In this document: piece by piece, positions 951 through 59,571 of the stretch
Position numbering within the stretch: position 1 is the stretch's first letter
How the letters are laid out: each line of letters opens with the position of its first letter
Source of the DNA: an uncultured Clostridia bacterium
Lineage (GTDB): Bacteria; Bacillota; Clostridia; TANB77; CAG-508
Length of the DNA: 64,000 nucleotides
Reading direction: 5' to 3'
NCBI GenBank assembly: GCA_948524275.1
Contig: CAOSLI010000004.1
Coordinates: forward strand, 16,106-80,105
Program-made: the position numbers and the translations under genes
The notes under the pieces: model-generated
Seen by the model: only the letters and a program-made list of their open reading frames with translations
What the model was told of the DNA's origin: nothing
The model's database searches: none

Positions 951-979
951 TTGACTATTATGTAAAAATATAGTAAAAT
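951..979 (+). promoter_or_regulatory. Sigma-A type promoter for the MYG1-family gene
   Basis: TTGACT (951-956), 17-nt spacer, TAAAAT (974-979). It lies about 140 nt upstream of the ATG at 1120. Confidence 0.5.
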
Positions 980-1119
980 ATTAGTATACATAATCTGTTA
1001 TGCAGATTCATTTACATACATTTATTTCCTTTTTACTAATTAGTTGGGAGATACTCCCTAACTTTTTGGTTGTACATATATTCCTTTAGGCATCAAATAA
1101 AAGTTGGAGGTAAACAATT

Positions 1120-2064
1120 ATGATTATGAGCATTGGGCAAATCCCTGACAGAGATTACACATTTAATTTTGGTACTCATAGTGGAATCTTCCACTGCGAC
1201 GAGGTCGTTGGGATGGCAATACTGGAAATGGCATTTATGGAGGATTTATTACATGTGATTCGGACCAGAAATCCTACAATTTTACAAACTCTTGATATGG
1301 TAATCGATATTGGAGGCGGAAAATTTGATCACCATATGACAGGCTTTGACAAGTGCAGGGCTACCGGCGAAAAGTATGCTAGTGCAGGGCTGGTATGGGA
1401 CAAGTTTGCTGAAGCTGCTATCTTGAATGTTTGCTATGTTGACAACATACCTACCAGTCGTATCATATTGCAGATAATCAAGGAGCAGATTGACAGAGAA
1501 ATTATCATCCCTGTTGATTTAGAAGATAACGGAAATGATATTGGGACTCATACCTTTAGTTTCATTCCAACGTATCTTCCATCATATCTTGATACCAAGC
1601 AAGATTACGATATGGCCTTCTCAAAGGCTGAAAGAATTACTTATGACATCTTGAAGCATATTATCAAAGATAAGGCTGTTAAACTTGTAACTGCAAAAGA
1701 GTTGCAAAGAAAATGTTCTGAAGTTAGTAATGGCATTTTAGAGATTTCTGCCCAAACAGTCCCGTGGCTTGAGATCATTACTCAATACAATCAGAGCAAT
1801 GATTTCAAAATTAAGTTTGTGATTTTCCCTTATCCTTCTGGTGGTTGGGCAGCACAATGTGTTCCCCCATCAGACGAGGAAAAATTCAAACAGCTTATTC
1901 CCTTTCCTAAGGAGTGGGCAGGCGGCACTGAAAAAACTTTACCTGAAATTTCAGGAATAACTGGTGCAACATTTTGTCACAATGGCCTCTTCTTTGCAAG
2001 AGCTAACACCAAGGCAGATATCGTAGAAATGTGTCAGTTTGCAATTGACAACTCTGGCAAGTAA
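1120..2064 (+). CDS. MYG1/UPF0160 family metal-dependent hydrolase (GC-richer island a)
   Basis: 314 aa with THSGIFHCDEV, VIRTRNP and DIGGGKFDHHM motifs characteristic of MYG1/UPF0160. RBS GGAGG at 1106-1110. G+C is visibly higher than in the flanks. In-frame CGG (Arg) at 1261-1263. Confidence 0.8.
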   Translation: MIMSIGQIPDRDYTFNFGTHSGIFHCDEVVGMAILEMAFMEDLLHVIRTRNPTILQTLDMVIDIGGGKFDHHMTGFDKCRATGEKYASAGLVWDKFAEAAILNVCYVDNIPTSRIILQIIKEQIDREIIIPVDLEDNGNDIGTHTFSFIPTYLPSYLDTKQDYDMAFSKAERITYDILKHIIKDKAVKLVTAKELQRKCSEVSNGILEISAQTVPWLEIITQYNQSNDFKIKFVIFPYPSGGWAAQCVPPSDEEKFKQLIPFPKEWAGGTEKTLPEISGITGATFCHNGLFFARANTKADIVEMCQFAIDNSGK

Positions 2065-2086
2065 TTTATTAGATAATCATAAGGAA

Positions 2087-2125
2087 ACGACAGTAGGACG
2101 ATTTATCGTACTACTGCCGTTTTTA
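2087..2125 (+). terminator. Rho-independent terminator between convergent MYG1 gene and tsaC
   Basis: Imperfect 16-nt arms ACGACAGTAGGACGAT / ATCGTACTACTGCCGT followed by TTTTT. Confidence 0.7.
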
Positions 2126-2126
2126 T

Positions 2127-3163
2127 TTATATAATATTATTTTCACAAGCTCTAACTAGTCTATTCATTATACTTAGTCCTAGATTCTTTTCCTCTACTC
2201 CTTCAATAACTGCAAAATCGCAATTTAATCTATCTATCTGTCTTAGACCAGAAAAAATATTACTAGAAACTTCTCCTAAATTATTTTTACTACCTAAACT
2301 AATAAATCTGTCTTCGGGAACATTTATATAATCCTTATCTTCTACAAAACCTAATACACAACAGTTATTATTTTTAGGAATCAAATCATTATTTATCTTA
2401 GATATTTGATTTACACCAGACTCTACTAATATACACTTTGTTTTAGGCGCGTAATGTTTATACTTCATACCAGGGCTCTCTACCTGTTCATTTTCTTTGA
2501 GTTTTCTAAATAATTTATCACTAAGTTTTACAACTCCGAATAGTATTTTTTATATCATCTTCAGTAATAAAACCAGGTCTTAGAATTGTAGGAACTCCAT
2601 CTATTACTTTTACAACTGTTGATTCTATTCCAATATTACATTTGCCACCATCAACCATTAAATCTACTTTGCCATCAAAGTCATCTTTAATATCTTCTAT
2701 ACAAGTTCCACTAGGTTTACTAGATATGTTCGCACTAGGTGCAGCAAGTGGGAGATTGCTATTTTCAATAACTTTATGAATTATTTTATTGTCAGGCATT
2801 CTAATACCAACAGTTTCTCCGATTACATGTTACAGTATCACAAATAGATTTCTTTTTATTTAGTATAAGTGTAAATGGTCCTGGCATAAAACTTTCAATA
2901 AGTTTTTCTTCAATTTCATTTGGCTTTTCTACAATATCATAAATCATTTCTTTATTTGAAACATGAACAATTAGTGGATTATCCTGAGCTCTTCCTTTTG
3001 CAGTAAATATCCTTTTACATGCCTTATCTGAAAATGCATTTGCAGCTAAACCATATACCGTTTCAGTTGGAAGTATAACTAATCCATCATTTTTTAAAGT
3101 TTCTATAACATTATTCAATTCATTTTCTTTTATATTATCTTTCCAATCATAAACTTTCATCAT
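2127..3163 (-). CDS. tsaC: L-threonylcarbamoyladenylate synthase (Sua5/YwlC/TsaC family), reading frame interrupted twice
   Basis: Three track ORFs (2801-3163, 2521-2799, 2127-2468) are collinear pieces of one YwlC-like protein: LPTETVYGLAANA, GETVGIRMPDN, APSANISSKPS, MKYKHYAP. The span is 1037 nt, which is 345 codons plus 2 extra nt. Confidence 0.85.
2535..2538 (-). other. Apparent +1 recoding/frameshift site CGGA (tsaC site 2)
   Basis: The minus strand reads ATT CGG AGT TGT AAA ACT TAG. Omitting the C (complement of 2538) gives ATT GGA GTT GTA AAA CTT AGT GAT AAA, running in frame into ...ESPGMKYKHYAP. Confidence 0.75.
2818..2821 (-). other. Apparent +1 recoding/frameshift site CGGA (tsaC site 1)
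   Basis: The minus strand reads AAT CGG AGA AAC TGT TGG TAT TAG. Omitting the C (complement of 2821) gives AAT GGA GAA ACT GTT GGT ATT AGA ATG CCT GAC, which translates to NGETVGIRMPD. Confidence 0.8.
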
Positions 3164-3235
3164 TTCTCTTTCCTCATTTACAGTAGTTAATTATACCAAA
3201 AAAATGGATATTTGTAAATATTTTTGAGAATTTAC

Positions 3236-3264
3236 TTGAAAATTTTGTATTTTATCTATATAAT
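3236..3264 (+). promoter_or_regulatory. Sigma-A type promoter upstream of hpf
   Basis: TTGAAA (3236-3241), 17-nt spacer, TATAAT (3259-3264). Confidence 0.5.
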
Positions 3265-3341
3265 GTTCTCATAAAATCTTTTAATGTGATTTGACAAGAT
3301 AAAATCACAGATAGCGATTAGTGAAGGGAGAGTTGATTATT

Positions 3342-3872
3342 ATGAATTTAAACATAACAGGAAAAGATTTTGAATTAACAGATTCTATAAAAAATTATAT
3401 TGCAGAAAAGGTATCTAAATTATCAAAATATATTGGAGATGAATTTGACGCTACAGCTACCTTTAAGACTGAAGGTTCTGAACAAGTTGCTGAAATTAGA
3501 GTTGTATTTGGTGGAGAAGTTATCAAGGCTGTCACAGCAAGTAAAGATTTATATTCTTCAATTGATAAAGATATTGACATATTAGAAGGACAAATTAGAA
3601 AAAGCAAAACTAAGAAAGATAAACAAAATATGACTGACTCTATTAGGGTAAAACAAGCAGCTATGGATAGTGATGATGATATTGAGGGTGAAATTATTAA
3701 AACAATTTATTATAGCATAAAACCACTTACTCCAGAAGATGCAAAACTTATCTTAGAGAGTGATCCCAAAAATAAATTTTTGCCATTTATAGATATTGAA
3801 ACTAACAAAGTTAATGTTATGTATAAATTGAAGGATGGAAAAAACTTTGGAATGTTAGAACCAGAAGCTTAA
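3342..3872 (+). CDS. hpf: Ribosome hibernation promoting factor (long HPF)
   Basis: MNLNITGKDFELTDSIKNYIAEKVSKLSKY is a typical HPF/YfiA N-terminus, and the long C-terminal domain is present. I chose the ATG at 3342 (after GGGAGAG) over the track start at 3321. Confidence 0.9.
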   Translation: MNLNITGKDFELTDSIKNYIAEKVSKLSKYIGDEFDATATFKTEGSEQVAEIRVVFGGEVIKAVTASKDLYSSIDKDIDILEGQIRKSKTKKDKQNMTDSIRVKQAAMDSDDDIEGEIIKTIYYSIKPLTPEDAKLILESDPKNKFLPFIDIETNKVNVMYKLKDGKNFGMLEPEA

Positions 3873-3877
3873 CTTGT

Positions 3878-3913
3878 AAAAGAACATTGTTTTCACACAA
3901 TGTTCTTTTATTT
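3878..3913 (+). terminator. Rho-independent terminator after hpf
   Basis: 13-nt perfect arms AAAAGAACATTGT / ACAATGTTCTTTT with a 6-nt loop, followed by a T-rich tail. Confidence 0.8.
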
Positions 3914-6472: not shown

Positions 6473-7033
6473 ATGAAGTTTATTAAAATCGTACCAAATA
6501 TCTTAACAGTAATTAGATTTATATTTGTACCATTTATAATTATAGCATTGGCATCTAATAATTATATTTTAGCATTAGTATTATTTAGTTTGTCATCTCT
6601 TTCAGATATTTTAGATGGATTTATAGCAAGGAAATTTAATGCAATTTCTGACTTTGGAAAACTTATGGATCCTTTAGCAGATAAATTAACGCAACTTTCA
6701 ATTTTAGCTACATTAACTATTCAAAAAATTATCCCTTTATGGATAGTCATAGTTATGCTTTCTAAAGATTTGTTACTTATATGTGGTGCTTCATTTTTAT
6801 ATGGAAAGGATTTAGTTGTATCTAGTAAATGGTATGGAAAACTTGCTACTGTACTTTTATATTTAGCAGTTGTAAGTTCATTGTTTATTAAATTATATGA
6901 TTTATATAGATTTGATGTATTCATATATGCTTTAGCTATTTTCTTTGCAATGTGGGCTTTAGTTGGATATTTCAATTACTTTTACAAAAAAGGATATCTT
7001 CCTAATAAAGAAGATTTAAAAAAGAAATCATAA
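6473..7033 (+). CDS. pgsA: CDP-alcohol phosphatidyltransferase (PgsA-like)
   Basis: 186 aa polytopic membrane protein with DILDGFIARKFNAISDFGKLMDPLADK, matching the D-G-x2-A-R-x8-G-x3-D-x3-D motif. Confidence 0.75.
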   Translation: MKFIKIVPNILTVIRFIFVPFIIIALASNNYILALVLFSLSSLSDILDGFIARKFNAISDFGKLMDPLADKLTQLSILATLTIQKIIPLWIVIVMLSKDLLLICGASFLYGKDLVVSSKWYGKLATVLLYLAVVSSLFIKLYDLYRFDVFIYALAIFFAMWALVGYFNYFYKKGYLPNKEDLKKKS

Positions 7034-9547: not shown

Positions 9548-11683
9548 TTAGCTAGTGTTGAATCTTGTTTTTATTCTTATTTTGCCGGCTTTATTTACTT
9601 TAAGAGTTATCTCCCCATTTTGGTCAGTTCTATATACTTTTATATTTTTATTTTTTAGTCTTTCTATTACTTCATTATTGGGGTGATTAAACTTATTATT
9701 TTCTCCTACTCCAATTAGAGCAAGCTTAGGATTTATGCAGTCTAGAAATCCCTCCGTTGTAGATGTTTTTGAACCATGGTGCCCAACTTTTAAAATAGTT
9801 GACCCAAGTGTATTTAAATTTTTATATTCCTTTACAATTTGATTTTCTGCTATTTTCTCTATATCTCCAGTAAATAATATTTCTGTATTGTAATATGTAA
9901 ATTTACATACTATTGCATTATTGTTTAGTGGGTTGTCACTAATCAAATTATCTGTTGGATGTAAAATAGTGCATTTAAGATTTTGCACGCTAAAATTATC
10001 TCCTTTTTGCACATATACAATATTAGTCTTTTTATTTTTGGCAATTGTTGTTATATCTCTATATAGCTTACTATCCTTTGCCTGATTTCCTATAATTAAA
10101 TTCTTAACCTTCATATTTTCTAAAATGTATATAGCTCCTTGGCAGTGGTCTGCGTCAAAATGTGACAGCATCATATAATCTAACACAGTTATTCCCTGAT
10201 TCAACAAATATCTATGAAGCACGCTTTTTCCTACATCATATGATGAATTCATGCTTCCACCAGTGTCTATCATTATTGTTTTTCCTTTGTATCTTATAAG
10301 TGTGCTATCTCCTTGTCCAACATCTATAAAATTTATAATTAGTTCTTCTTTAGCTGTGCTTACAAAATTAGTAATTCCAAAACTAAAGATCATGAAACAA
10401 GATAATAATATTGGTATTATTTTGTTTCTATATTTTATGCCTAAAAATATAATTAGATATATCGCCAAAACAATATAAACTACGTTTGTTGGTACATATA
10501 CTTTGGATAATGGAATTTTAGAACAAAGCTTTGCTATTTTCATAAGGAATGTTAGACACAACTCTAACATGATAAAAACTGGTTTAATTTTTATGATTAT
10601 AGATATAAATTCTAATATAATTATAACGCCTAGAAGCCCTGATGCCAGTACATTTGATATTATAAATGTAAACGAAATAGTATTAAATTTCCATATCATG
10701 ACTGGCAGTATAATTACATTTGCTGATAAAGTTACACTTACTATTTTAGATTTTATTTTCTTTGAAAAAAATTTATAGAATGTTACTATTCCAATTGCAC
10801 CTGAATAGGACAGCATTAGCCCAATATCAAAGATTACATATGGATTATAAATTACCTGAATTAATAACGAAATACTTAGCGAGTTCCAAAAGTCATTTCT
10901 CCTTTTTAGTATGCTTGCCAGTATTGTCATAACTGACATTATACCTGCTCTTGAAACAGATGGTGTATTTCCAGTTAAATTCATAAAAAATATTATTGAT
11001 ACTATTGTAATAATTTGCTCTATTCTTTTATGATTTAATTTATTTCCTATCCAGGTTACAATTAATATTATATAAGAAAAATGTGCGCCAGAAATTGCTA
11101 GCATATGTGTTAGATTTGAACCTTTAAAGTCTTCTTGTATATTGTCTGACAAATTCGATTTGTCTCCTACTAATAGTCCAATTGCAAGTTCGGCCTGGTT
11201 ACTTTTCAGATTTTCCCTTAGTGTTTTCTTTATATGTTTTCTCACATTAACAATTGTATTCTTTTTATTTGATTTATTTATGTTTGATACTTTACTTACT
11301 TTAAATATTCCATATATCTTCTTAGACTTTAAGTAAAGTGAATAATCAAAACCTCCGGAATTTCTTGCTTTTGTTGGCTCATTATATACAGCTTCAATCT
11401 TTATCATATCGCCATACTGAAATTGGCTATATTGCTCCTTATTTGTTCCTTTTTTATTTATGCTAATTATCTTTTTAGGAATGTAAATTAAAAATTTTCT
11501 TCCATCTATTTTTGCTGTATATACATAATTATATTCTTTCTCTATAGGCTCACTTATAATCTCTGCTGTAAAAGTTCCGTCATATGGTCCGTCATATTTA
11601 AAAAAGGCTACACCCATGCTGTGTAGCCCAATTATAATCATTATAGTTATAATCGCAAGGACACACAAAATTCTATGCTTCAT
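9548..11683 (-). CDS. comEC: DNA internalization competence protein ComEC/Rec2
   Basis: 711 aa with a polytopic competence domain and a C-terminal metallo-beta-lactamase domain (IDVGQGDS, HFDADH, GHHGS). Confidence 0.9.
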   Translation of the reverse strand: MKHRILCVLAIITIMIIIGLHSMGVAFFKYDGPYDGTFTAEIISEPIEKEYNYVYTAKIDGRKFLIYIPKKIISINKKGTNKEQYSQFQYGDMIKIEAVYNEPTKARNSGGFDYSLYLKSKKIYGIFKVSKVSNINKSNKKNTIVNVRKHIKKTLRENLKSNQAELAIGLLVGDKSNLSDNIQEDFKGSNLTHMLAISGAHFSYIILIVTWIGNKLNHKRIEQIITIVSIIFFMNLTGNTPSVSRAGIMSVMTILASILKRRNDFWNSLSISLLIQVIYNPYVIFDIGLMLSYSGAIGIVTFYKFFSKKIKSKIVSVTLSANVIILPVMIWKFNTISFTFIISNVLASGLLGVIIILEFISIIIKIKPVFIMLELCLTFLMKIAKLCSKIPLSKVYVPTNVVYIVLAIYLIIFLGIKYRNKIIPILLSCFMIFSFGITNFVSTAKEELIINFIDVGQGDSTLIRYKGKTIMIDTGGSMNSSYDVGKSVLHRYLLNQGITVLDYMMLSHFDADHCQGAIYILENMKVKNLIIGNQAKDSKLYRDITTIAKNKKTNIVYVQKGDNFSVQNLKCTILHPTDNLISDNPLNNNAIVCKFTYYNTEILFTGDIEKIAENQIVKEYKNLNTLGSTILKVGHHGSKTSTTEGFLDCINPKLALIGVGENNKFNHPNNEVIERLKNKNIKVYRTDQNGEITLKVNKAGKIRIKTRFNTS

Positions 11684-15332: not shown

Positions 15333-17426
15333 TTACTGGTTATCCTTTTTAGCTCTAGATGTTACTATCTGATCTAAAACTGATTTTGGAACTTCTTCAT
15401 AATGTGAAGGTTCCATTGCATATGTTCCTCTTCCTTGGGTTTTAGAACGTAAGTCAGTAGCATATCCAAACATTTCTGAAAGTGGAATAAATCCTCTTAT
15501 AACTTGGTTTCCGCTTCTAGCTTCCATTCCTTCCATTCTACCACGTCTGCTATTAATATCACCAATAACATCTCCCATATATTCTTCTGGAACTGTTATC
15601 TCAACTTTCATGATAGGCTCTAGTAGGGCAGCCTTACCTTGTTTACATCCTTCTTTAAATGCCATAGATGCGGCAATTTTGAAGGCCATTTCTGAAGAGT
15701 CAACTTCATGGTAAGAACCATCAACAAGTGTAACTTTGAAATCTATAACTGGGTATCCAGCAAGAATACCGCTTGTAGAAGCTTCTCTCATTCCGTCTTC
15801 AACTGGCTTGATGTATTCTTTTGGAACAGCTCCACCAACAATCTTGTTCTCGAATTGAATTCCTGAACCTGGTTCTAGTGGTTCCATCTCAAACCATACA
15901 TCTCCGTATTGTCCATGTCCACCTGATTGACGAACAAATTTACCTTGTACTCTAACTTTATTTCTAATTGTTTCTTTGTAAGAAACCTGAGGTTTACCTA
16001 CTGTACATTCAACTTTGAACTCTCTCTTTAATCTGTCTACTATAATGTCTAAGTGAAGCTCACCCATACCTGCAATTATAGTTTGACCTGATTCTTGATC
16101 TGTCCATGTTTTAAATGTTGGGTCTTCCTCTGCAAGTTTTGCTAATGCAATTCCCATCTTTTCACTATTAGCTTTATCTTTTGGCTCAATAGCTATATCA
16201 ATAACTGGTTCTGGGAATTCCATTGATTCTAGTATAACTGGATGATCTGGATCGCAAAGTGTATCACCTGTTGATACATCTTTTAATCCAACTGCTGCTG
16301 CAATATCTCCAGCATATACTTGATCTATATCTTGTCTATGGTTAGCATGCATTAGAAGTATCCTTCCTAATCTATCTTTCTTGTCTTTTGTAGCATTTAA
16401 GATAGTTGTACCTGTTGTACAAGTACCAGAATATACTCTAAAGAAGCATAGCTTTCCAACAAATGGGTCTGTCATTATTTTGAATGCTAAAGCTGAGAAA
16501 GGCTCTTTATCGTCAGTCTTTCTATCTGTTTCATTACCAGCTTCATCTATACCTTTGATTGGTGGAATGTCAAGTGGTGATGGTAGATAGTCAACTATTG
16601 CATTTAATAATTCTTGAACACCTTTATTTTTGTATGATGAACCACAAGTCATTGGAACTATTGTGTTATCAATTGTTCCCTTTCTAAGACCTTTCTTAAT
16701 TTCTTCTTCAGATAGTTCAGTTCCATCTAAATATTTCATCATTAATTCATCATCTTGTTCTGCTGCAGCTTCAAGCATTGCTTGTCTGTAGCTTTCTGCA
16801 TCTGCTTTCATATCCTCAGGAATATCACATTCTTCAATTTCTTTTCCTAAGTCATCTTTATGAATGAATGCTCTCATCTTGATTAAGTCTACAATTCCCT
16901 TAAATTCATCTTCTTTACCTACTGGTAATTGGATTGGAACTGGATTGCATCCTAATCTATCTCTCATTTGGTCAATACAAGCATAAAAATCAGCACCTGT
17001 AATATCCATTTTATTAACATATACCATTCTTGGTACTCTATATTTATCTGCTTGTCTCCAAACTGTCTCTGATTGTGGTTGAACACCACCTTTTGCTGCT
17101 AATACTAGAATTGTTCCATCTAATACTCTTAAAGATCTCTCAACTTCAACTGTAAAGTCAACGTGACCTGGAGTATCAATGATATTTATTCTATTATCTA
17201 GCCAATGACAAGTTGTAGCTGCTGATGTGATTGTAATACCTCTCTCTTGCTCTTGAACCATCCAGTCCATAGTAGCTGCACCATCATGAACTTCACCTAT
17301 TTTGTGAGTTATTCCTGTGTAGAAAAGTATTCTCTCTGTAGTAGTTGTTTTACCCGCATCAATGTGGGCCATTATTCCTATATTTCTTGTTCTCTCTAAA
17401 GGAAATTCTCTTCCGTTTCCGGCCAT
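15333..17426 (-). CDS. fusA: Elongation factor G
   Basis: 697 aa with [20 protein letters not shown] and DTPGHVDF. Confidence 0.98.
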
Positions 17427-18638: not shown

Positions 18639-18667
18639 TTGCAATTTTATGTAAAGTATGGTATAAT
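18639..18667 (+). promoter_or_regulatory. Sigma-A type promoter with extended -10, island b
   Basis: TTGCAA (18639-18644), 17-nt spacer ending in TGg, TATAAT (18662-18667). The -10 region is homologous to the promoter at 44207-44235. Confidence 0.6.
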
Positions 18668-18752
18668 AGATATAACTTTTGGATTACCCAAGAGATTCAT
18701 TTTATGAAACTCGGAGGGTAACGCCTCCGAGTAATTACAAGGAGGAACAATT
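18668..18752 (+). promoter_or_regulatory. Conserved structured 5' leader, copy 1 (candidate cis-regulatory RNA)
   Basis: Hairpin TTCAT-TTT-ATGAA (18696-18708). Hairpin CTCGGAGG-GTAACG-CCTCCGAG (18710-18731). TTACCC (18684-18689) is complementary to GGGTAA in and next to the second hairpin loop. SD GGAGG at 18741-18745. 64 of 73 positions are identical to the reverse complement of 44122-44194. Confidence 0.6.
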
Positions 18753-19190
18753 ATGGATGAGTATGGAGTACAGAATTTTGAGGAACAGCAGTACGCACAG
18801 TATTCGGAGGAAATGTCAAGAGCACAGCAAGTGCGGGCAAAGGTTTTGGCGGCAAATCCAAAAATCACTATCGACAAATTAGCGCCGCAGATCTTCGATT
18901 GGGTCTTGGATCTCATAGATTCCGATGACCCCGAAAAAAAGAAACTCTTTGGTAAAGGGCAAGTACAGATATGGTACTATACCAATAGCAAAACCTTTTC
19001 TAAGATTTCTTGCCACGTAGAGGATTTCTCCTTAGCTTATAACAACTTTACTGCTGCCCAAATGAAAACTCTTTTCGAAGCAGTAAAAGAGCTCTTTGAC
19101 GATGAGGAAGGTTACACTACAAACATAAGCAGCGAACCTGTACGAATCATGTCTAGAGATGCCATAACGCTCGATATCTCCATCGAATAA
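18753..19190 (+). CDS. Hypothetical protein, 145 aa (GC-richer island b)
   Basis: Strong SD, an uninterrupted ORF, and its own promoter and terminator. No family recognised. In-frame CGG (Arg) at 18834-18836. Confidence 0.6.
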   Translation: MDEYGVQNFEEQQYAQYSEEMSRAQQVRAKVLAANPKITIDKLAPQIFDWVLDLIDSDDPEKKKLFGKGQVQIWYYTNSKTFSKISCHVEDFSLAYNNFTAAQMKTLFEAVKELFDDEEGYTTNISSEPVRIMSRDAITLDISIE

Positions 19191-19196
19191 TTGCAA

Positions 19197-19238
19197 AAAG
19201 GCTCCCCGCTTTTCGAAGCTGGGAGCCTTTCTTTTTAT
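19197..19238 (+). terminator. Rho-independent terminator of island b gene
   Basis: AAAGGCTCCC ... GGGAGCCTTT hairpin followed by CTTTTTATT. Confidence 0.75.
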
Positions 19239-19302
19239 TATACAAAACATTATTGTATACTTTTTCTATATAACACTTTGGTATTATTCTTATTTATTTA
19301 AA

Positions 19303-40045: not shown

Positions 40046-41086
40046 TCATGTTTTAAGCTTTTCTATTTCTTCTATGCTTAATCTTGTAATCTTCATAATA
40101 TAGTCTATTGGTTGTTTGTCTTCTAATAATGCTTTTGCAATTTCAATTTTTGCTTCGTTTTGACCTTCCCTCATACCTTCTTGTAGTCCTTCTTTTATAC
40201 CTTCTTTTCTGCCTTCTTCTAACCCTTCTGCAAGTCCTTCTGCACGGCCTTCTGCATGACCTTCTGCATGACCTTCTGCCAATCCCTTTGCCTTTCCTTC
40301 GGCTAATCCCATCTCCATTCCAGTCTTTTTAGCATATCGCATCCCATTTTCATAATCCATTCTAGCAACTGCTAGATCAAAATGCAAATCCATTATTTCT
40401 TCATCTTGCATTATTTCATCTACCCTCGCTAATGCTTCTTTTACATTTCTATTCTTTTTCTCTGCCATTTCTATCTTTTCCCCCTTACCAGATATTAACC
40501 ACAGCCATTGATCCAATTTATCTTCTACTCCCGGATTCTTTTTTATAAACTTTGGCATTTCTATAAAATGCATTTCTATCATATCTGTTGCTATTTCTTC
40601 TTCGTCTTTATATCCCATATCTACATATCTATTCTTCCTTTTATTGAACATCATATTCGCTACTGAATGATAACTATTTATTTTGAAACAATTAAAGTTT
40701 AGTATCCATATTGCTATTGATGGCTTTAACTCTTTATACTTGTTTCCTTTGTTTATTTGCGTTGCTATATTTCTGCACATATAGAGTGGTCCTCGCTGCT
40801 TTATATCTCCTTTGTTTTCTACTTGCATTTCAATGTCAACAATCTGCTTTCCATCAATCTCAGCTCTTATATCTAATATACTTGCTTTTTCTTTTAGTCT
40901 TTCCTTTGGTATTTCACTATTTTTCACATCTACTTTAGTTATTCTTTTTTCTAATATTGCTTCCAGGAAATCTCTAAGCATTGGCTCTGTTCCTTCTTTT
41001 GTAAATGTTCTTTTAAATATGTAATCGTTTAATAATGGTGCTTCTATATTAAGCACACTTTTATCCATGTGTTCTGTTTCTTTCAA
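40046..41086 (-). CDS. Rpn-family PD-(D/E)XK recombination-promoting nuclease / putative transposase
   Basis: 346 aa with an N-terminal LNDYIFKRTF...LDIRAE...VDIEMQV nuclease core and a C-terminal GLAEG/EGxxEG repeat tract typical of this family. Confidence 0.65.
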   Translation of the reverse strand: MKETEHMDKSVLNIEAPLLNDYIFKRTFTKEGTEPMLRDFLEAILEKRITKVDVKNSEIPKERLKEKASILDIRAEIDGKQIVDIEMQVENKGDIKQRGPLYMCRNIATQINKGNKYKELKPSIAIWILNFNCFKINSYHSVANMMFNKRKNRYVDMGYKDEEEIATDMIEMHFIEMPKFIKKNPGVEDKLDQWLWLISGKGEKIEMAEKKNRNVKEALARVDEIMQDEEIMDLHFDLAVARMDYENGMRYAKKTGMEMGLAEGKAKGLAEGHAEGHAEGRAEGLAEGLEEGRKEGIKEGLQEGMREGQNEAKIEIAKALLEDKQPIDYIMKITRLSIEEIEKLKT

Positions 41087-43785: not shown

Positions 43786-43811
43786 ATATAAAAAGAAGCC
43801 TCTTTCGAGGC
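43786..43811 (-). terminator. Terminator of island d2 gene
   Basis: The minus strand reads GCCTC-GAAA-GAGGC followed by TTCTTTTTATAT. Confidence 0.6.
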
Positions 43812-43839: not shown

Positions 43840-44121
43840 TTACAGTAAGTTAACTGCGGACATTATGATGCATCCACATGAACATGTTATGCATATTATA
43901 GAGCATATCCAAGTTTCCTCTCTTGAAATGAGTTCTATAATCAACTTAATTGAAAATGCTATTCCCGCTATAATAGCCAATCTCATTATCAATAAGTCAT
44001 GATTGATTGCTGTCATTGCTCCTACACCTATCAATGCAAAGCAGCACAATGTTGCCAAGATTCCTATGATAGTCAAAAGGACATCAATGATGTCCCGTAT
44101 GATGTTTTTGTTTTTGCTCAT
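43840..44121 (-). CDS. Small hydrophobic membrane protein, 93 aa (GC-richer island d2)
   Basis: About three predicted TM stretches (LLTIIGILATLCCFALIGVGAMTAI, AIIAGIAFSIKLIIELI, ICSIICITCSCGCIIMSAV). SD AGGAGGA at 44128-44134. In-frame CGG is present. Confidence 0.6.
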   Translation of the reverse strand: MSKNKNIIRDIIDVLLTIIGILATLCCFALIGVGAMTAINHDLLIMRLAIIAGIAFSIKLIIELISREETWICSIICITCSCGCIIMSAVNLL

Positions 44122-44206
44122 AATGCATCCTCCTCGTAATTACTCGGAGGTGTTACCCTCCGAGTTTCATAAAATGATTCCCTTTGGGTAAATAAAGGTT
44201 ACTATT
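44122..44206 (-). promoter_or_regulatory. Conserved structured 5' leader, copy 2
   Basis: Its reverse complement aligns with 18684-18755. It has the same TTCAT/ATGAA hairpin, the same CTCGGAGG/CCTCCGAG hairpin (44143-44164), and the same TTACCC...GGGTAA complementarity. Confidence 0.6.
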
Positions 44207-44235
44207 ATTGTACCATATTTCTGCCGAAATATCAA
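44207..44235 (-). promoter_or_regulatory. Sigma-A type promoter with extended -10, island d2
   Basis: The minus strand reads TTGATA (44235-44230), 17-nt spacer, TGgTACAAT (-10 at 44212-44207). Confidence 0.55.
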
Positions 44236-44315
44236 ATTTATGTAAAGCATATTTTTGTAAAAAATGAAAGTAGGAAAACTATTATAGTCTAATAGAAATT
44301 TCAATAAAATAGTAT

Positions 44316-44345
44316 AAATCTCCCTTCCAAAAGAAAGGGAGATTT
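44316..44345 (-). terminator. Terminator of island d1 gene
   Basis: AAATCTCCCTTCC / GAAAGGGAGATTT hairpin (12 of 13 paired) directly after the stop. The T tract is weak. Confidence 0.5.
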
Positions 44346-44350
44346 ACAGA

Positions 44351-44665
44351 TTAGGCCGTTTTAGCCACAGCGGTTATGATTTCATCGTCGGTAGCAATAC
44401 CGGGATTCCATCCCATCAATTTCATTGCGGCTGCAAGCCTGTCCTCGAAGAAAACCCAGTGGCTTTTTCCATGTTCAAACAGGCATGTTGTGCCTGCAAG
44501 CATCTCTGCTTTGAAGAAACGATAGCCGATGCATCCGTTTTTATCGTAAAACTGGTGTTTTGTAGGATCAGGCTCGTCCGTTTCCTCGATTACTGTCCAG
44601 TGATGATCATACCGTGGACAAATGTGCATAGTTTCAACAAAGAGTTTTACATTCTTTTCCTGCAT
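44351..44665 (-). CDS. Hypothetical protein, 104 aa (GC-richer island d1)
   Basis: The ATG at 44665 is preceded by AGGAGGA (44671-44677), so I prefer it to the track start at 44728. No family recognised. In-frame CGG (CCA CGG TAT). Confidence 0.55.
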   Translation of the reverse strand: MQEKNVKLFVETMHICPRYDHHWTVIEETDEPDPTKHQFYDKNGCIGYRFFKAEMLAGTTCLFEHGKSHWVFFEDRLAAAMKLMGWNPGIATDDEIITAVAKTA

Positions 44666-44765
44666 AGTAGTCCTCCTAATCTTGAACTTGCCATCAAAAT
44701 TCCAATGACAATTGTCCAAGTGATACATTTATTTAATTCGCTGTATCTACGAATAATATATTAAT

Positions 44766-44797
44766 ATTATAACAAACTTTACATAAAATGTAAAGTT
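44766..44797 (-). promoter_or_regulatory. Sigma-A type promoter of island d1 overlapped by a 10-bp-arm palindrome
   Basis: The minus strand reads TTTACA (44794-44789), 17-nt spacer, TATAAT (44771-44766). The palindrome AACTTTACAT-AAA-ATGTAAAGTT spans 44775-44797. Confidence 0.5.
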
Positions 44798-54537: not shown

Positions 54538-54574
54538 AAGATAAAAAGACCAAAAGTTTTACCTTCTAGTCTTT
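54538..54574 (-). terminator. Terminator of the SpoIIID-like island e gene
   Basis: AAAGACCAAAAG / CTTCTAGTCTTT hairpin (10 of 12 paired) followed by TTTTATCTTTT on the minus strand. Confidence 0.55.
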
Positions 54575-54632
54575 TCATATTCCCAAGCTCCAATTTTGTA
54601 TTTTAGTACTCGCTATTCCTTAACGTTTCCTG

Positions 54633-54860
54633 CTATCGCCGTATAAATTCCCTTGCGCGATTTACACTTTCAACCTTATTGTTAGCAAGTAAAGTCTCAA
54701 CTTGATTGTACAGTTCCTTGTTTAACTTGCACAAGCGCTCAGTAATCCATTTGTGTATTGTTGTTTTGCCTTTTCCATAATAATCGGCTGTCTGCCGAAT
54801 TGTTGCATTTTCGCTTATCATATAACGCGCCATTTCAAGGACTTCGCTATCTTTTACCAT
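54633..54860 (-). CDS. SpoIIID-like helix-turn-helix protein, 75 aa (GC-richer island e)
   Basis: MVKDSEVLEMARYMISENATIRQTADYYGKGKTTIHKWITERL parallels the SpoIIID pattern (TVR.AAKKFGVSKSTVHKDVSERL) seen in the canonical copy at 58090-58350. The ATG at 54860 follows AGGAGG. Two in-frame CGG codons. Confidence 0.6.
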   Translation of the reverse strand: MVKDSEVLEMARYMISENATIRQTADYYGKGKTTIHKWITERLCKLNKELYNQVETLLANNKVESVNRAREFIRR

Positions 54861-55056
54861 ATTAATTCCTCCTATTGGTTTGAAATTTACATTTGAGCTT
54901 TGGAAAATTTTTGACAATAATTATTGCCATTTTACTTTTTCTGCAACATTTTTGTCATAATTATTATATCATATATAGGCTAAAAAGTCCACCAAATTGG
55001 CAAAACTGCTCTCTCAAAATGTACAACTTATAATCAATGTTAAATTAATCAGTTTA

Positions 55057-55627: not shown

Positions 55628-56146
55628 TTATCTATTTTTTATATAATTTAATATTTTAGTTGTAAATGGATTGAATATTAAATACATTATATATCCAATA
55701 ATTCCGCCTAATACATTAGTTATTAAATCAGTTATATCTGATGACCTAAAACCATTTATTAAAGGTTGTAGTATTTCTATACTTAGACTCAATAAAAAAG
55801 TATAGAAAACAACTTTTAATAATTTAGTATTTTCTTTTTTTATTAAAGGTAATAAAAATCCAAAAGGAATTGTCATTATAATATTTAATCCTACCTGTCT
55901 AGCAAAATCTCCTCTGCCAAAAGTAACATCAATAAAGGGTACTAAATTCATTGGATTATATGGGTGATTAAATATAAATGGTAAAGATGTTATTATGGGC
56001 ATTAAAGTAAAATATAATACAAATGATAAATATATATACATTATGGTGTTTACAAGTAGTACATCTTTTCCTTGTGATTTCCATTTCTTATAAAATATAA
56101 ATATATATATAACTATTAAAACAATGAAATCTATTATTTCTTTCAC
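55628..56146 (-). CDS. VanZ-family membrane protein
   Basis: 172 aa with 4-5 TM segments. NIIMTIPFGFLLP and SSDITDLITNVLGGIIGY resemble the VanZ family. Confidence 0.6.
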   Translation of the reverse strand: MKEIIDFIVLIVIYIFIFYKKWKSQGKDVLLVNTIMYIYLSFVLYFTLMPIITSLPFIFNHPYNPMNLVPFIDVTFGRGDFARQVGLNIIMTIPFGFLLPLIKKENTKLLKVVFYTFLLSLSIEILQPLINGFRSSDITDLITNVLGGIIGYIMYLIFNPFTTKILNYIKNR

Positions 56147-56307: not shown

Positions 56308-57915
56308 CTATTTTTTAAGTTCTTTAGCCTTTTTAACTAATTCTACAAATAAGGCTCCAGGTCTGTCTGGTCTAGATTTAAATTCTGGATGGAATTGACC
56401 TGCTACAAAGAATGGATGATCTTTTATCTCTACAATTTCTACTAGGCTTCCATCTGGTGATGTTCCCACAATATCAAGTCCTGCTTCTTCCATAGCTTCT
56501 CTATATTCATTATTATATTCAAATCTATGTCTATGTCTTTCTGATATTTCTGCTTGTCCATAAATTTTTCTAGCATAACTTCCCTCTTTTAATACGCATG
56601 GGTATGCACCTAGTCTCATTGTTCCACCTTTTTTGTAAATACCCTTTTGATTTTCCATTATATGAATTACAGGATTTTTGCACTCTGAGTCAAATTCTTC
56701 TGAATTTACATCTTCTAATTTTAATACATTTTTTGCAAATTCTATAACTGTCATTTGCATTCCAAGACATATTCCTAAGAATGGTATTTTATTTTCTCTA
56801 ACATATTTTATAGTCTCTATCATTCCGTCAATTCCTCTTGTACCAAATCCTCCTGGAACTACTACTCCATTTATGTCTTTAAATATCTCCTTAACATTTT
56901 TGCTTGTGACTGTTTCACTATCAATAAATTTGATTCTTGCTTTTACATCATTTGCATATCCTGCATGATATAAGCTTTCTACAACTGATAAATATGAATC
57001 TTCTAGCTTTACATATTTTCCCACTATTCCTATATTTACAATATTGTCCTCATTAATTGCTTTAATTTTATCAACCATTTTAGCCCATTTTTCATTTTGA
57101 GGTTCTTTATGTTCTAATTCTAATTTTTTGCATATTACATTTCCTAGTCCCTCGTCTTCAAGCATTAGAGGCACTTCATATAAGTTACTTACTGTTGCAT
57201 TTACTATAACATTTTCTGGTCTAACATTACAAAATAATGCAATCTTTTCCTTCATTTTACTTGGAACTTCTGCATCTGCTCTACATACTAATATATCTGG
57301 ATTTATTCCTATTGATTGTAATTCTTTTACTGAATGTTGTGTTGGCTTTGTTTTTAATTCGTTTGAACCGCTTATATATGGAAGAAGTGTGACATGTATA
57401 AATGCACATTTATTTTCTGGTTGTTCTAAACCTATTTGTCTAATTGCTTCAAGCATTGGCTGACTTTCTATGTCTCCTACTGTTCCACCTATTTCAGTTA
57501 TAACTATATCTACATCTGTGTTTTCAAAATTATATACTTTTTGTTTTATAGCATCAGTTATGTGTGGGATTACTTGTACTGTTTTTCCAAGATAGTCACC
57601 TCTTCTTTCTCTTTCAATTACTTCTTTATAAATTTTCCCGCTTGTAATGCTTGAATCTGCACTTAAATTCTCATCAGTAAATCTTTCATAATGTCCTAAG
57701 TCTAAGTCAGTTTCTGCTCCATCCTCAGTTACAAATACTTCTCCATGTTCATATGGACTCATTGTCCCTGGATCAACGTTTATATAAGGGTCTAACTTTT
57801 GATTAGCAACCTTATATCCTCTATTTTTTAGTAATCTTCCAAGTGACGCTGCTGTTATACCCTTTCCAAGCCCAGATACAACTCCTCCTGTTACAAATAT
57901 AAATTTTGTTTCCAT
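56308..57915 (-). CDS. pyrG: CTP synthase
   Basis: 535 aa with KFIFVTGGVVSGLGKGITAASLG, a GICLGMQ glutaminase Cys, and HRHRFE. Confidence 0.97.
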   Translation of the reverse strand: METKFIFVTGGVVSGLGKGITAASLGRLLKNRGYKVANQKLDPYINVDPGTMSPYEHGEVFVTEDGAETDLDLGHYERFTDENLSADSSITSGKIYKEVIERERRGDYLGKTVQVIPHITDAIKQKVYNFENTDVDIVITEIGGTVGDIESQPMLEAIRQIGLEQPENKCAFIHVTLLPYISGSNELKTKPTQHSVKELQSIGINPDILVCRADAEVPSKMKEKIALFCNVRPENVIVNATVSNLYEVPLMLEDEGLGNVICKKLELEHKEPQNEKWAKMVDKIKAINEDNIVNIGIVGKYVKLEDSYLSVVESLYHAGYANDVKARIKFIDSETVTSKNVKEIFKDINGVVVPGGFGTRGIDGMIETIKYVRENKIPFLGICLGMQMTVIEFAKNVLKLEDVNSEEFDSECKNPVIHIMENQKGIYKKGGTMRLGAYPCVLKEGSYARKIYGQAEISERHRHRFEYNNEYREAMEEAGLDIVGTSPDGSLVEIVEIKDHPFFVAGQFHPEFKSRPDRPGALFVELVKKAKELKK

Positions 57916-57924
57916 ATTTCTTCC

Positions 57925-57977
57925 TCCAAAAACAAAAATAGACCCTTAAAAAAGTGTTTTTTTTTAGGTCTATTTTT
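57925..57977 (-). promoter_or_regulatory. Intrinsic terminator in the pyrG 5' leader (candidate attenuator)
   Basis: The minus strand reads AAAAATAGACC-N21-GGTCTATTTTT followed by GTTTTTGG, immediately 5' of the pyrG RBS. Confidence 0.5.
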
Positions 57978-58089
57978 ATACCTCAAAAATTTCTATAATT
58001 ATATTATCATGACTATTAAAATTTTTCAAGTAGTTTTTTAAATTTTTCTTAAATTAAATAGGAATTTTTGTCGCCTATTTTTGCTGTTC

Positions 58090-58350
58090 TTAATATTGAT
58101 GCATTTTTATGTATTTTAATTTTGTTGCCATACCGCCTCTTATATGTCTCTCAGCTTTATTTTCATCAAGTACTTTTCTAACTTCTTCATACATAAACGG
58201 ACTTAATTCTTTCAGTCTTTCAGAAACATCTTTATGTACTGTGCTTTTACTTACGCCAAATTTCTTAGCAGCGCCTCTTACTGTATCTTTAGTATCTATT
58301 ATATACTGTGCGAGTGAAAGTACACGTTTTTCTACCCAATCGTCCTTCAT
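58090..58350 (-). CDS. spoIIID: Stage III sporulation transcriptional regulator SpoIIID
   Basis: MKDDWVEKRVLSLAQYIIDTKDTVRGAAKKFGVSKSTVHKDVSERLKE...HIRGGMATKLKY. The ATG at 58350 follows GGGGAGG. Confidence 0.9.
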   Translation of the reverse strand: MKDDWVEKRVLSLAQYIIDTKDTVRGAAKKFGVSKSTVHKDVSERLKELSPFMYEEVRKVLDENKAERHIRGGMATKLKYIKMHQY

Positions 58351-58443
58351 ATAAGTCCTCCCCAAGTAAATACTTTTGGTTAATTGTATTCACATAGGAG
58401 TTTTAATAGAACAATACTTAAAATTAAAAATAGAGCATATGCC

Positions 58444-59019
58444 CTATTTTTGTTCTGATATAAATCTATATATTTCTCCCCAGTTTGTCACTTCCTTAAA
58501 TTTTCCTTCTAAATTTAAATGTTTTCTATTAAGAGACTGAAAATATATTGTCCCAATATTTTCTTTATTCATGGCTTCACATATATGGTAGTTATCATCA
58601 ATCATATAATCTATATTTTCTTTTTTGCATACATCTACCTTTTCTGTTTGTCCCCAATAGTATTTATCAAATTGTATATTGCTTTCTTTCAGTTTTATTT
58701 CTGCAACTTCTCTATTGTTTGTTGCTGTGCCTTGGCATCCTCTAGCTGTAACTAGATTTAACTCGTGTCCATCTTTTCTTAATAAGTCAAGCACTTCCTT
58801 TGCCCCTGGCATAAAGTCAAAATTGTCAATTCCAATATATTTATTAAGATATTTATTCATTTCTTCTTCTGTCCAATCATAATCGTTTTGTATTCTAGGT
58901 TCTCCAAGATTTTTCATACTATTTCTTTTTAATTCTATACAATCATAAAGCTCTGCATATACAGCCCATAATGCTTCTGAGTTAAATACAACTCCATCTA
59001 AATCTATTCCAATTTTCAT
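58444..59019 (-). CDS. HAD-superfamily hydrolase, 5'(3')-deoxyribonucleotidase-like
   Basis: MKIGIDLDGVVF (DxDG motif I), LVTAR, IDDN. The ATG at 59019 is preceded by GAGG. Confidence 0.6.
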   Translation of the reverse strand: MKIGIDLDGVVFNSEALWAVYAELYDCIELKRNSMKNLGEPRIQNDYDWTEEEMNKYLNKYIGIDNFDFMPGAKEVLDLLRKDGHELNLVTARGCQGTATNNREVAEIKLKESNIQFDKYYWGQTEKVDVCKKENIDYMIDDNYHICEAMNKENIGTIYFQSLNRKHLNLEGKFKEVTNWGEIYRFISEQK

Positions 59020-59103
59020 TTTGTACCTCTTCCTTGCACTAAAAATTATTTTTTTAGATAATATCATAAGAATTGTTTATATACAATATCTTTTTAGAAT
59101 TAA

Positions 59104-59141
59104 ACAGAAAAAGGAGAGACTTGAAAGCTCAAATCTCTCCC
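59104..59141 (-). terminator. Terminator of island f gene
   Basis: The minus strand reads GGGAGAGATTT-GAGCTTTC-AAGTCTCTCC followed by TTTTTCTGTTT. Confidence 0.7.
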
Positions 59142-59228
59142 AAAAAGTTGTGTGCGTCGGCAGTATTTACTTCAGTTACATTCACATCTTAATTTTGTAA
59201 ACTTCCCAAAGTTATTGCCAAGCCTAGG

Positions 59229-59495
59229 TCATGTCAAACTGGTAATTGTGACTGTCTTTTGAACAGTTTCTTTACCGTCTGCCCCCTTAATCAGCTTGAC
59301 TTCGTGCGACTCCTTTTCGTATCTTGTCTCTCTCGACAGTACTACTTTATCGCCGTCTTCCTCAAGCTTGAAGAGTTTCCGACCGCCATAAGCGGAGTGT
59401 TCGAACACCATAGGATTGTCATCAATCATGAGTTCACTTTCCGTGGTGTTTATCATCTCTTCTCTGACCTGTGCCAACTTTTTCTGCTCGTTCAT
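59229..59495 (-). CDS. Hypothetical protein, 88 aa (GC-richer island f)
   Basis: Intact ORF with its own promoter and terminator. No family recognised. In-frame CGG followed by A (GGT CGG AAA, 59381-59379). Confidence 0.5.
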   Translation of the reverse strand: MNEQKKLAQVREEMINTTESELMIDDNPMVFEHSAYGGRKLFKLEEDGDKVVLSRETRYEKESHEVKLIKGADGKETVQKTVTITSLT

Positions 59496-59542
59496 AGGGT
59501 ACCCCTTTCACTATTGCTGCATGGCCGAATTGCCATATTTTT

Positions 59543-59571
59543 ATGATAACATATTTTATGTCTTTTTACAA
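59543..59571 (-). promoter_or_regulatory. Sigma-A type promoter, island f
   Basis: The minus strand reads TTGTAA (59571-59566), 17-nt spacer, TATCAT (59548-59543). Confidence 0.45.

Follow-up and report, generated by a model that had tools for sequence, protein, structure and literature searches.

Seven genes, here called a, b, c, d1, d2, e and f, stand out by their codon composition in a 64,000-nucleotide (nt) stretch of DNA from an uncultured Clostridia bacterium (assembly GCA_948524275.1, contig CAOSLI010000004.1, positions 16,106 to 80,105), which we refer to throughout as the window. They occupy six intergenic sites among core genes, d1 and d2 sharing one of them (unit d). Codon-position base composition was taken over the non-overlapping open reading frames (ORFs) of at least 60 residues in the window, whose overall GC content is 30.2%. 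Whereas the 60 host ORFs have a GC fraction at third codon positions (GC3) of 0.175 ± 0.033 with a maximum of 0.254, the values for the seven genes are 0.375 (a), 0.466 (b), 0.341 (c), 0.394 (d1), 0.467 (d2), 0.382 (e) and 0.528 (f), corresponding to z = 5.0–10.7. Their synonymous-codon log-likelihoods under host usage are likewise extreme, at z = −5.7 to −10.1. A preliminary description made from the letters alone had picked out the same seven genes as compositional outliers, and this choice proved sound, as no further GC3 outlier was found among the window ORFs of at least 60 residues.

The codons CGG, CCC, CTC, TCC and ACC are 8–48 times commoner per 1000 codons in the seven genes than in host genes (for instance, 9.6 versus 0.2 for CGG, 5.3 versus 0.5 for CCC, 10.6 versus 0.8 for CTC and 9.6 versus 0.6 for TCC). 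Of the codons that the host had been said to avoid, CGG, CCC and CCG (about 10-fold commoner) behave as claimed, whereas GCG is enriched only about 2-fold. The amino-acid composition of the seven proteins is host-like, making the anomaly almost purely synonymous. Total GC discriminates less sharply: in tuf, fusA and ftsZ it climbs to 0.36–0.40 in 150-nt segments through the first and second codon positions (GC1 and GC2). The native and highly expressed genes tuf, fusA, rpsL and groEL have GC3 values of 0.13–0.19, so expression does not raise GC3 here.

Structured GC-rich noncoding RNAs are the usual source of GC spikes in AT-rich genomes. We rejected the possibility that such RNAs had been mistaken for genes, since the seven regions have no Rfam match at the gathering threshold or at E ≤ 1, show coding-type GC1, GC2 and GC3 patterns and, as described below, have ratios of nonsynonymous to synonymous substitution (dN/dS) below 0.4. 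ARAGORN found no tRNA or tmRNA gene in the window, and no Rfam family (E ≤ 1) is present in it either, although it spans the rpsL–tuf, rpsB–tsf, rplS and groESL regions.

Organization of the six units

The promoters and terminators given here are predictions from sequence, made by consensus matching. All seven genes have promoter-like hexamers, a strong Shine-Dalgarno (SD) sequence and a same-strand terminator hairpin, in line with the earlier claim that each carries its own signals. In DNA this AT-rich, promoter-like matches do not exceed those expected by chance or in shuffled sequence; terminator-like matches are enriched.

Unit a lies on the plus strand. Its predicted promoter (TTGACT-17-TAAAAT, 951–979) and a leader of about 140 nt occupy 951–1119, and gene a (1120–2064; GC 0.396) encodes a 314-residue protein of the MYG1/UPF0160 family. 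A terminator-like hairpin followed by a T-run is found within the leader at 1042–1063, about 55 nt upstream of the SD sequence; the leader, for which Rfam gave no match, may act as an attenuator or a riboswitch-like element. The candidate terminator, recognized by eye at 2087–2125, pairs about 14 of 16 positions before TTTTT and lies between the convergent genes a and tsaC; the terminator scan did not list this hairpin, perhaps because its 2-nt loop falls under the 3-nt minimum of the scan. The adjoining tsaC/Sua5 gene (2127–3163, minus strand) is split into three ORFs of 113, 92 and 120 residues in different frames, and the same three-way split occurs in a sister lineage (L104, 1252–2288; L105, 1481–2517). 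It could be a conserved pseudogene, a gene with programmed frameshifts or a truly split gene.

Units b and c are also on the plus strand. The region 18639–18752 comprises the predicted b promoter (TTGCAA-17-TATAAT, 18639–18667) and an 85-nt leader with hairpins at 18676–18694 and 18710–18731, followed by AAGGAGGA. Gene b itself (18753–19190; 145 residues; GC 0.418) is followed by a predicted terminator at 19197–19238, whose hairpin (19197–19230) pairs AAAGGCTCCCCGCTT with AAGCTGGGAGCCTTT as a 15-nt inverted repeat of 93% identity ahead of a T-run. For unit c, the predicted promoter (TTGATT-17-TATAGT, 20844–20872) and leader span 20844–20981, gene c spans 20982–21350 (122 residues; GC 0.396), and a 9-bp stem (21390–21411) with a T-run forms the putative terminator at 21390–21420.

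The remaining units lie on the minus strand. In unit d, the d2 promoter and leader (44666–44797; TTTACA-17-TATAAT at 44794–44766, within the palindrome ACTTTACATTTTATGTAAAGT) precede gene d2 (44351–44665; 104 residues; GC 0.448) and a predicted 16-pair terminator hairpin at 44313–44348. The d1 promoter and leader follow at 44122–44235 (TTGATA-17-TACAAT at 44235–44207), with an 85-nt leader homologous to that of b, then gene d1 (43840–44121; 93 residues), whose hydrophobic product is probably a membrane protein, and a candidate terminator at 43788–43811 (hairpin 43811–43798). A hairpin at 44316–44345 had been assigned to d1 but in fact ends d2. Unit e has its SD sequence and candidate promoters (54958–54929 and 54991–54963) within 54861–54991, gene e (75 residues) at 54633–54860 and a predicted terminator at 54541–54578; its previously given extent of 54538–54900 covers the gene and leaves the candidate promoters, at 54929–54991, outside. 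Unit f consists of a predicted promoter and leader at 59496–59571 (TTGTAA-17-TATCAT, 59571–59543), gene f at 59229–59495 (88 residues; GC 0.446), which is encoded on the minus strand, a correction to the first reading, and a terminator of 13 pairs and TTTTT at 59112–59141. The likely starts of c (20982), d2 (44665) and e (54860) are those at which the exact proteins are called as genes in public assemblies. Two other assignments made earlier, comEC (9548–11683) and pgsA (6473–7033), are confirmed.

Relatives, junctions and empty sites

The host is placed close to 'Clostridium sp. CAG:793' (EF-Ts 84% identical), in an uncultured lineage of gut Clostridia. Its next relatives are metagenome-assembled genomes of uncultured gut Clostridia with 25–31% GC, including one complete chromosome of 1.55 Mb. 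We surveyed 40 GTDB relatives around tsf and 80 metagenome loci anchored on RodA, and found gene order poorly kept, with nothing conserved beyond rpsB–tsf and minD...smc.

Because the source contig is metagenome-assembled, and the contig of one relative (L172) does look chimeric, chimeric joining or binning with reads from a GC-richer organism had to be considered as the origin of the units. The exact junctions between units and flanks recur, however, in at least five independent assemblies from NCBI, ENA, JGI and Logan and from different samples, and sister lineages have orthologous copies that have diverged. These findings effectively refute an assembly or binning artefact. Among the strains compared, L002 and L003 match the window over the compared stretch bar four isolated differences, except in fusA (15500–17000), where they carry 53–104 clustered differences that represent imports by recombination; the fusA of L002 is annotated as two ORFs.

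Empty sites for b and c are found in L106 (GCA_037193845.1), whose APH is 80% identical to that of the window at the amino-acid level and which is collinear with the window over about 9.5–31 kb. Its order is rpsB–tsf–APH–rpsL–rpsG–fusA–tuf, with 206 nt separating tsf from APH and 167 nt separating APH from rpsL, and neither b nor c is present. The end of tsf, the APH promoter and the rpsL promoter region all align between L106 and the window, leaving as extra DNA in the window about 18639–19300 (unit b) and about 20825–21476 (unit c). Unit b begins exactly at its −35 box (18639), both against this empty site and against an unrelated contig, L006, discussed below. No GC3 outlier is present in the 20.8 kb of syntenic L106 DNA, and none of the 40 GTDB relatives has either unit within 10 kb of tsf; in relatives whose RpsL differs slightly, the spacer ahead of rpsL measures 115 nt. 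No empty sites could be obtained for a, d, e and f, around which the sampled relatives lose synteny. The seven genes combine atypical codon usage with a patchy distribution among relatives, both hallmarks of horizontal transfer. The proposal that the units are foreign and inserted as self-contained pieces is borne out by the vacant L106 sites and by the 40 relatives that lack b and c.

Two further differences in gene content concern the neighborhoods of units c and e. A guanylate-kinase-like gene (20137–20697, minus strand; GC3 0.19, host-like) that L106 lacks adjoins unit c; lying downstream of the conserved APH promoter and ahead of APH, it makes up a new operon of two genes, and it is a gain of the opposite compositional kind to the seven genes. 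A VanZ-like ORF (55628–56146, minus strand; GC 0.21) between pyrG and yccF is absent from the approximately 90% identical L192.

Among 104 loci of relatives (1.55 Mb, 1563 ORFs), we found about a dozen credible GC3-outlier genes, a density of about 1 per 130 kb compared with 7 per 64 kb in the window. Isolated GC-rich ORFs with GC3 values of 0.42–0.54 occur in L110 (3066–3308), L017 (15832–16326), L022 (637–975), L039 (5719–6330) and L029 (7045–7668), and L007 carries a small GC-rich island at 13–3691 (GC3 0.34–0.43). The GC-rich ORFs of relatives are at other sites and unrelated in sequence to the seven window genes; they indicate that such genes extend more widely, if more thinly, through the lineage.

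Age and selection

Sister lineages that differ from the window by 10–15% in DNA provide data on units a, b, c and e. L103 (94% DNA identity overall), L104 and L105 (84–85%) all have gene a in the order pth–a–tsaC, with GC3 values of 0.36–0.40 compared with 0.11–0.25 in the flanks. In L107–L109, where APH is 87% identical, c is present at 67% protein identity (GC3 0.37) and the b site holds a 120-residue homologue of b (GC3 0.41). A third version of b, 45% identical by phmmer and with a GC3 of 0.43, lies between rpsL and APH in L190, and L192 (about 90% DNA identity) has the order yccF–e–groES with a GC3 of 0.34 for e. Orthologues with the same composition at the same sites, a pattern that the preliminary description had named as counting against its reading if seen in all relatives, are therefore found in L103–L105, L107–L109, L190 and L192 but not in L106 or more distant relatives.

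By the Nei-Gojobori method (NG86), dN/dS is 0.18–0.37 for a, 0.26 for c and 0.15 for e, pointing to purifying selection on all three; a value obtained for d1 against L089 was an alignment artefact and is not used. Synonymous divergence (dS) of these three genes is 0.23–0.78, which is similar to or 1.25–1.4 times that of flanking host genes, and the raised dS of a and c is as amelioration predicts. The shared sites and the dN/dS values place a, c and e, as functional genes, in the ancestor of a genus-level clade; these and b are not recent acquisitions. Leaders are better conserved than coding sequences (CDSs) between sister lineages: the leader of a is 92–95% identical compared with 79% for its CDS (about 0.8 substitutions per synonymous site), and that of c is 90% identical compared with 74%.

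Near unit a, the window and L103 differ at 7 of 883 nt (0.8%) up to position 1136. From 1137 on, 17 nt into the CDS of gene a, they differ at 85 of 750 nt (11.3%). An allele of gene a has probably been replaced here.

A mosaic at unit b

The 29-nt promoter of b is near-invariant across the window, L107 and L190 (27–28 of 29 positions), and the DNA adjoining the CDS, comprising leader, terminator and host genes, is 82–90% identical across species. The proteins encoded at the b site in these three species are only 35–45% identical, with coding DNA that aligns at about 46%; against L107 the b protein is 35–37% identical while the promoter matches at 28 of 29 positions. Unit b behaves like an exchangeable cassette in which the coding part has been replaced at a fixed site, and it may still be undergoing exchange with an unrelated bacterium.

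A near-identical copy of gene b is found in L006, an unrelated contig of about 44% GC from JGI (3300006217) with flanking GC3 values of 0.28 and, on the right, 0.505. From the −10 box on, L006 matches the window at 84 of 85 leader positions and 379 of 384 CDS positions (98.7%), whereas the promoters agree at only 23 of 29. The L006 copy lacks the last 18 codons, stopping 54 nt before the stop codon (at 1039/1040), and has no terminator. At this junction, on the other strand, an ABC permease gene that follows a solute-binding-protein gene is broken off (first ~73 codons). The resulting 154-residue fusion ORF is also present in a second contig variant, from which we conclude that the junction is real.

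Units b and d1 share the whole 85-nt leader (an inverted repeat of 102 nt, 80% identical) and encode unrelated proteins, and the d2 promoter matches that of b over 25 nt at 92%, again as an inverted repeat. The b leader of the sister species is closer to the d1 leader of the window (76 of 86) than to the b leader of the window (70 of 86). The units had been described as separate insertions; six distinct sites are indeed used, but the shared leader of b and d1 and the shared promoter type of b and d2 contradict full independence. The leader folds into two hairpins, with z = −2.6 to −3.7 in the three versions folded, and the second of these, CTCGGAGG/CCTCCGAG, contains a copy of GGAGG just upstream of the real SD sequence. 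Covariation across five variants (RNAalifold) is weak and not decisive. An exact-pattern scan for the hairpin gave no match in viral or metagenome collections, and among 191 fetched loci the motif is confined to the window species, the sister lineages and L006, leading us to reject the idea of a widespread element. Positions 19249–19263, which lie immediately beyond the b terminator within 66 nt that L106 lacks, hold an inverted partial copy of the promoter spacer and −10 region of the cassette (AAAGTATACAATAAT-like), which may be a relic of an earlier cassette.

Gene products

Only a and e match families above threshold, so the products remain, as first described, mostly unrecognizable small proteins, and the seven are mutually unrelated with no common function detected. 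Gene a, proposed to encode a MYG1 hydrolase, matches PF03690 at full length (E 5.5e-53; 181.1 bits against a gathering score of 22.1; profile positions 3–317 of 318). Outside the clade, MYG1 matches are at most 65% identical, though the family is large. Gene e had been called SpoIIID-like, and it does match PF12116 (E 8.9e-18) as well as phrog_11726, a PHROG of phage SpoIIID-like proteins, but its TIGR02844 score of 61.4 is below the equivalog cut-off of 111.5. The native spoIIID gene (58090–58365, minus strand; 125.9 bits to TIGR02844) lies 3.2 kb from e, and the two products are 40% identical. The sub-cut-off score and this identity mark e as a paralogue-like helix-turn-helix protein and not the sporulation regulator itself.

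The b family is rare, with about 10 clusters at 50% identity among 1.84 billion representatives. AlphaFold gave a mean confidence score (pLDDT) of 39 from the single sequence and 78.7 from an alignment of 10 sequences, and Foldseek found no significant match to the latter model in PDB or BFVD. One distant member, in L191 (27.5% GC), has a host-like GC3 of 0.16, showing that the b family can do without high GC3; together with a 69-residue ORF it forms a two-gene operon upstream of ylxM–ffh (L191, 4770–5357). No family, phage or plasmid match was obtained for c, d1, d2 or f; a UPF0180 match for c is weak (20.5 bits, under the Pfam gathering score of 25.4), and sequence searches of PDB with c, d2 and f were negative. 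The d1 ORF is intact in L087–L089, where gene callers did not call it.

Mobility functions and route of entry

Neither the annotated nor the Pfam-scanned proteins of the window include an integrase, and the 64 kb contain no structural, replication or conjugation genes. The unit ends show low-complexity AT-rich near-matches but neither target-site duplications nor terminal inverted repeats, nor any sequence that they have in common. There was likewise no Rfam or structured-repeat match resembling attC and no repeat family common to the 3′ ends of the units. Candidate phage or plasmid origins were rejected: blastn with six units and tblastn with d2 and c found nothing, and scans of viral contigs (d2, c and f), PHROGs and PADLOC were empty apart from the SpoIIID-like PHROG matched by e.

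The reported lack of integrases, tRNAs and att-like repeats beside the units therefore stands, but that of transposases has to be qualified. A gene at 40046–41086 on the minus strand, 2.7 kb from unit d and adjacent to no unit, encodes a 346-residue, Rpn/YhgA-like PDDEXK_2 protein that matches PF12784, 'nuclease family transposase' (E 2.6e-42), and has a Yae1_N-type C-terminal repeat. It belongs to a segment of about 5 kb, comprising lysA, d2, d1, a gene for a 787-residue GNAT protein and the PDDEXK_2 gene, that relatives do not have between HD and smc. Rpn proteins promote RecA-independent horizontal transfer in Escherichia coli (PMC5350276) and have also been described as toxic and anti-phage (PMC10400941); a link between the PDDEXK_2 gene and the units is speculative.

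The preliminary description had called six single-gene insertions in 64 kb without mobility genes unusual. Horizontally acquired genes without them are, however, documented and common: half of the hotspots of horizontal gene transfer (HGT) have no recognizable mobile genetic element (MGE), and such MGE-free hotspots show raised homologous recombination in their flanks, especially in transformable species (PMC5635113). With comEC present in the window, as had been stated, natural transformation is a conceivable route of entry.

Discussion

In the reading that we favor, at a probability of roughly 60%, horizontal transfer brought the seven genes in as moron-like accessory transcription units that settled in intergenic spacers of the clade ancestor, and some units later underwent allele replacement. 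Each unit would have arrived as a promoter, a leader, one ORF and a terminator from GC-richer donors (about 40–50% GC, probably other gut Firmicutes) and entered intergenic spacers before a small clade of low-GC gut Clostridia diverged. First integration may have occurred by illegitimate or short-homology recombination, without an element-encoded integrase. Having its own promoter, SD sequence and terminator, each unit would be expressed independently and leave the neighboring core operons undisturbed. Several units would then have been inherited vertically and retained by purifying selection, and the conserved promoters and leaders, terminators and flanking core genes could have served as homology anchors through which homologous recombination swapped the coding part for divergent alleles, at b and probably also at a. 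Recombination tracts between strains are seen in fusA.

Several observations weigh against this reading. The predicted promoters and terminators are consensus matches, empty sites were obtained for b and c only, and a donor was found for none of the units; amino-acid composition of MYG1 homologues was uninformative as to the donor. At a dS of about 0.75, GC3 has still not converged on that of the host, which is beyond what simple amelioration predicts. Polarized substitutions in the MYG1 gene number 33 from GC to AT and 32 from AT to GC, where the host bias predicts about 2.9:1, and at third positions the counts are 15 and 14 (L104 as outgroup; window and L103 branches; small numbers); imported alleles may confound this test. 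The promoter and leader shared by b, d1 and d2 speak against fully independent events. Finally, the L191 member means that low-GC Clostridia are not wholly foreign ground for the b family.

The shared promoter and leader would also be expected of co-regulated early genes, and the units could accordingly be scattered remains of one prophage, integrative and conjugative element or plasmid segment, acquired by the clade ancestor in a single integration and later fragmented by deletion and by the frequent rearrangements of these genomes. The phage SpoIIID-like PHROG matched by e, the poor conservation of gene order in the group and the position of unit d, within a 5-kb segment that relatives lack and beside the PDDEXK_2 nuclease gene, would fit such a history. 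We nonetheless consider it improbable, since no structural, replication, conjugation or integrase gene occurs in the 64 kb, the seven proteins are unrelated to one another, and each unit is exactly one transcription unit in a conserved short spacer with core promoters intact. Moreover, tuf–fusA–rpsG–rpsL–APH–tsf–rpsB is collinear with L106 bar b, c and the guanylate-kinase-like gene, so rearrangement did not bring b and c to their places. That the genes are native, with selection on codons, mRNA structure or expression timing holding GC3 high, is a possibility to which we give very little credence. All copies of a, b, c and e keep GC3 values of 0.34–0.47, at a dS of 0.2–0.8 for a, c and e, the MYG1 substitutions are compositionally balanced, dN/dS indicates functional genes and another low-GC relative has a b-family member, all of which would fit this possibility. 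But b and c are absent from the intact spacers of L106 and from all other sampled relatives, tuf, fusA, rpsL and groEL have GC3 values of just 0.13–0.19, the L191 homologue of b manages with 0.16, and b shares 99% identity with DNA whose surroundings have 44% GC.

That last identity also bears on the idea that the units form an active, previously undescribed cassette system, in which a promoter-leader module and a terminator bracket an exchangeable CDS. Its cassettes would pass from site to site and among unrelated gut Firmicutes, with the recombination function supplied by the host or in trans, for example by a nuclease of the Rpn/PDDEXK type. One leader stands before the unrelated ORFs b and d1, and one promoter type before b and d2; the b-site CDS differs by 55–65% across three species with promoters alike at 27–28 of 29 positions; the 99%-identical copy in the unrelated genome of about 44% GC starts from the −35 box and occurs in two contig variants; and a PDDEXK_2 nuclease gene is present, Rpn proteins having been found to mediate RecA-independent transfer in E. 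coli (PMC5350276). Such a system is nevertheless improbable. The leader motif occurs only in the window species, two sister lineages and L006; neither 1.5 Mb of loci from relatives nor the viral and metagenome collections contained it. The module is missing from units a, c, e and f, and no conserved end sequences or repeats were seen. Most of the mosaicism is explained by ordinary homologous recombination among related species, and the L006 copy, truncated and disrupting a permease gene, looks accidental and not targeted. We hold as similarly improbable the broader proposal that chromosomal, integrase-free cassette exchange operates in gut Firmicutes, passing small ORFs between unrelated genomes and swapping them at fixed intergenic sites beside core operons, and that continual re-import from a GC-richer shared pool keeps the units GC-rich.

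Acquisition as moron-like units, followed by some allele replacement, makes this locus an example, at the level of coordinates, of how accessory genes may settle among essential operons without mobile-element machinery. The most interesting part is the mosaic module of b, d1 and d2 together with the 99%-identical copy in an unrelated genome. If cassette exchange is real, genes would be flowing through the gut microbiome by an unrecognized route; failing that, the locus is still a good natural system for amelioration and recombination-driven turnover of alleles.

Among known systems, the phage morons of Hendrix and Juhala, defined by their own promoter and terminator and a deviant GC content (PMC3594210), come closest to the units: a single ORF with its own promoter and terminator, a GC content unlike that of the neighbors, a position between genes that are adjacent in relatives (PMC3594210; here the case for b and c, given tsf–APH–rpsL in L106), an expression independent of surrounding operons, here predicted, and an accessory function. 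Morons, however, sit in phages and prophages, whereas the units are flanked by core genes (pth/tsaC, rpsL/APH, tsf and groES/yccF), the window has no prophage and no phage genes, no unit matches phage or viral DNA collections, and sister species share several units in fixed form. In the absence of a phage, the units fall outside the context that defines a moron; the moron logic of phages would here operate in the core chromosome of a reduced, low-GC gut bacterium. Integron cassettes resemble them as single-ORF units of foreign composition, with different CDSs at the b site in different lineages, but the units have no attC, IntI or array, are dispersed and not tandem, and carry their own predicted promoters where integron cassettes are typically promoterless. 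Nor do they have the integrase, tRNA or att sites and direct repeats of classical genomic islands, or look like passengers of insertion sequences, transposons or miniature inverted-repeat transposable elements, the only transposase-labelled gene being that for PDDEXK_2, next to no unit.

The near-identical promoter or leader before the unrelated genes b, d1 and d2 and in L006 recalls 'mobile promoters' (PMC3575422), but here the promoter appears to travel or recombine with a complete foreign ORF and terminator and does not rewire a resident gene. The Rpn (YhgA-like) nucleases (PMC5350276) have a counterpart in the PDDEXK_2 protein at 40046–41086, and neither target-site duplications nor terminal repeats would be expected from the RecA-independent DNA acquisition, needing no long homology, that they promote; the match in the window, though, is to PF12784 and not to PF04754, the family of Rpn proper. 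The units also resemble the MGE-free hotspots or 'genomic islets' of Oliveira et al. 2017 (PMC5635113), which likewise place acquired genes between core genes without integrase or transposase, show homologous recombination in and beside the sites and go with the presence of a competence gene. Such hotspots make up only about 1% of intervals and change rapidly within species (PMC5635113), while here six spacers in 64 kb hold one or two genes each, stable within and across sister species. The units fit the class of MGE-free HGT islets as well, and their general kind is already known. Three features go beyond the routine: the density of 7 genes in 64 kb, the persistence of units across sister species under purifying selection with codon usage that has not converged on that of the host, and a b site that keeps its promoter while leader and CDS have been replaced by a version 99% identical to DNA of an unrelated organism.

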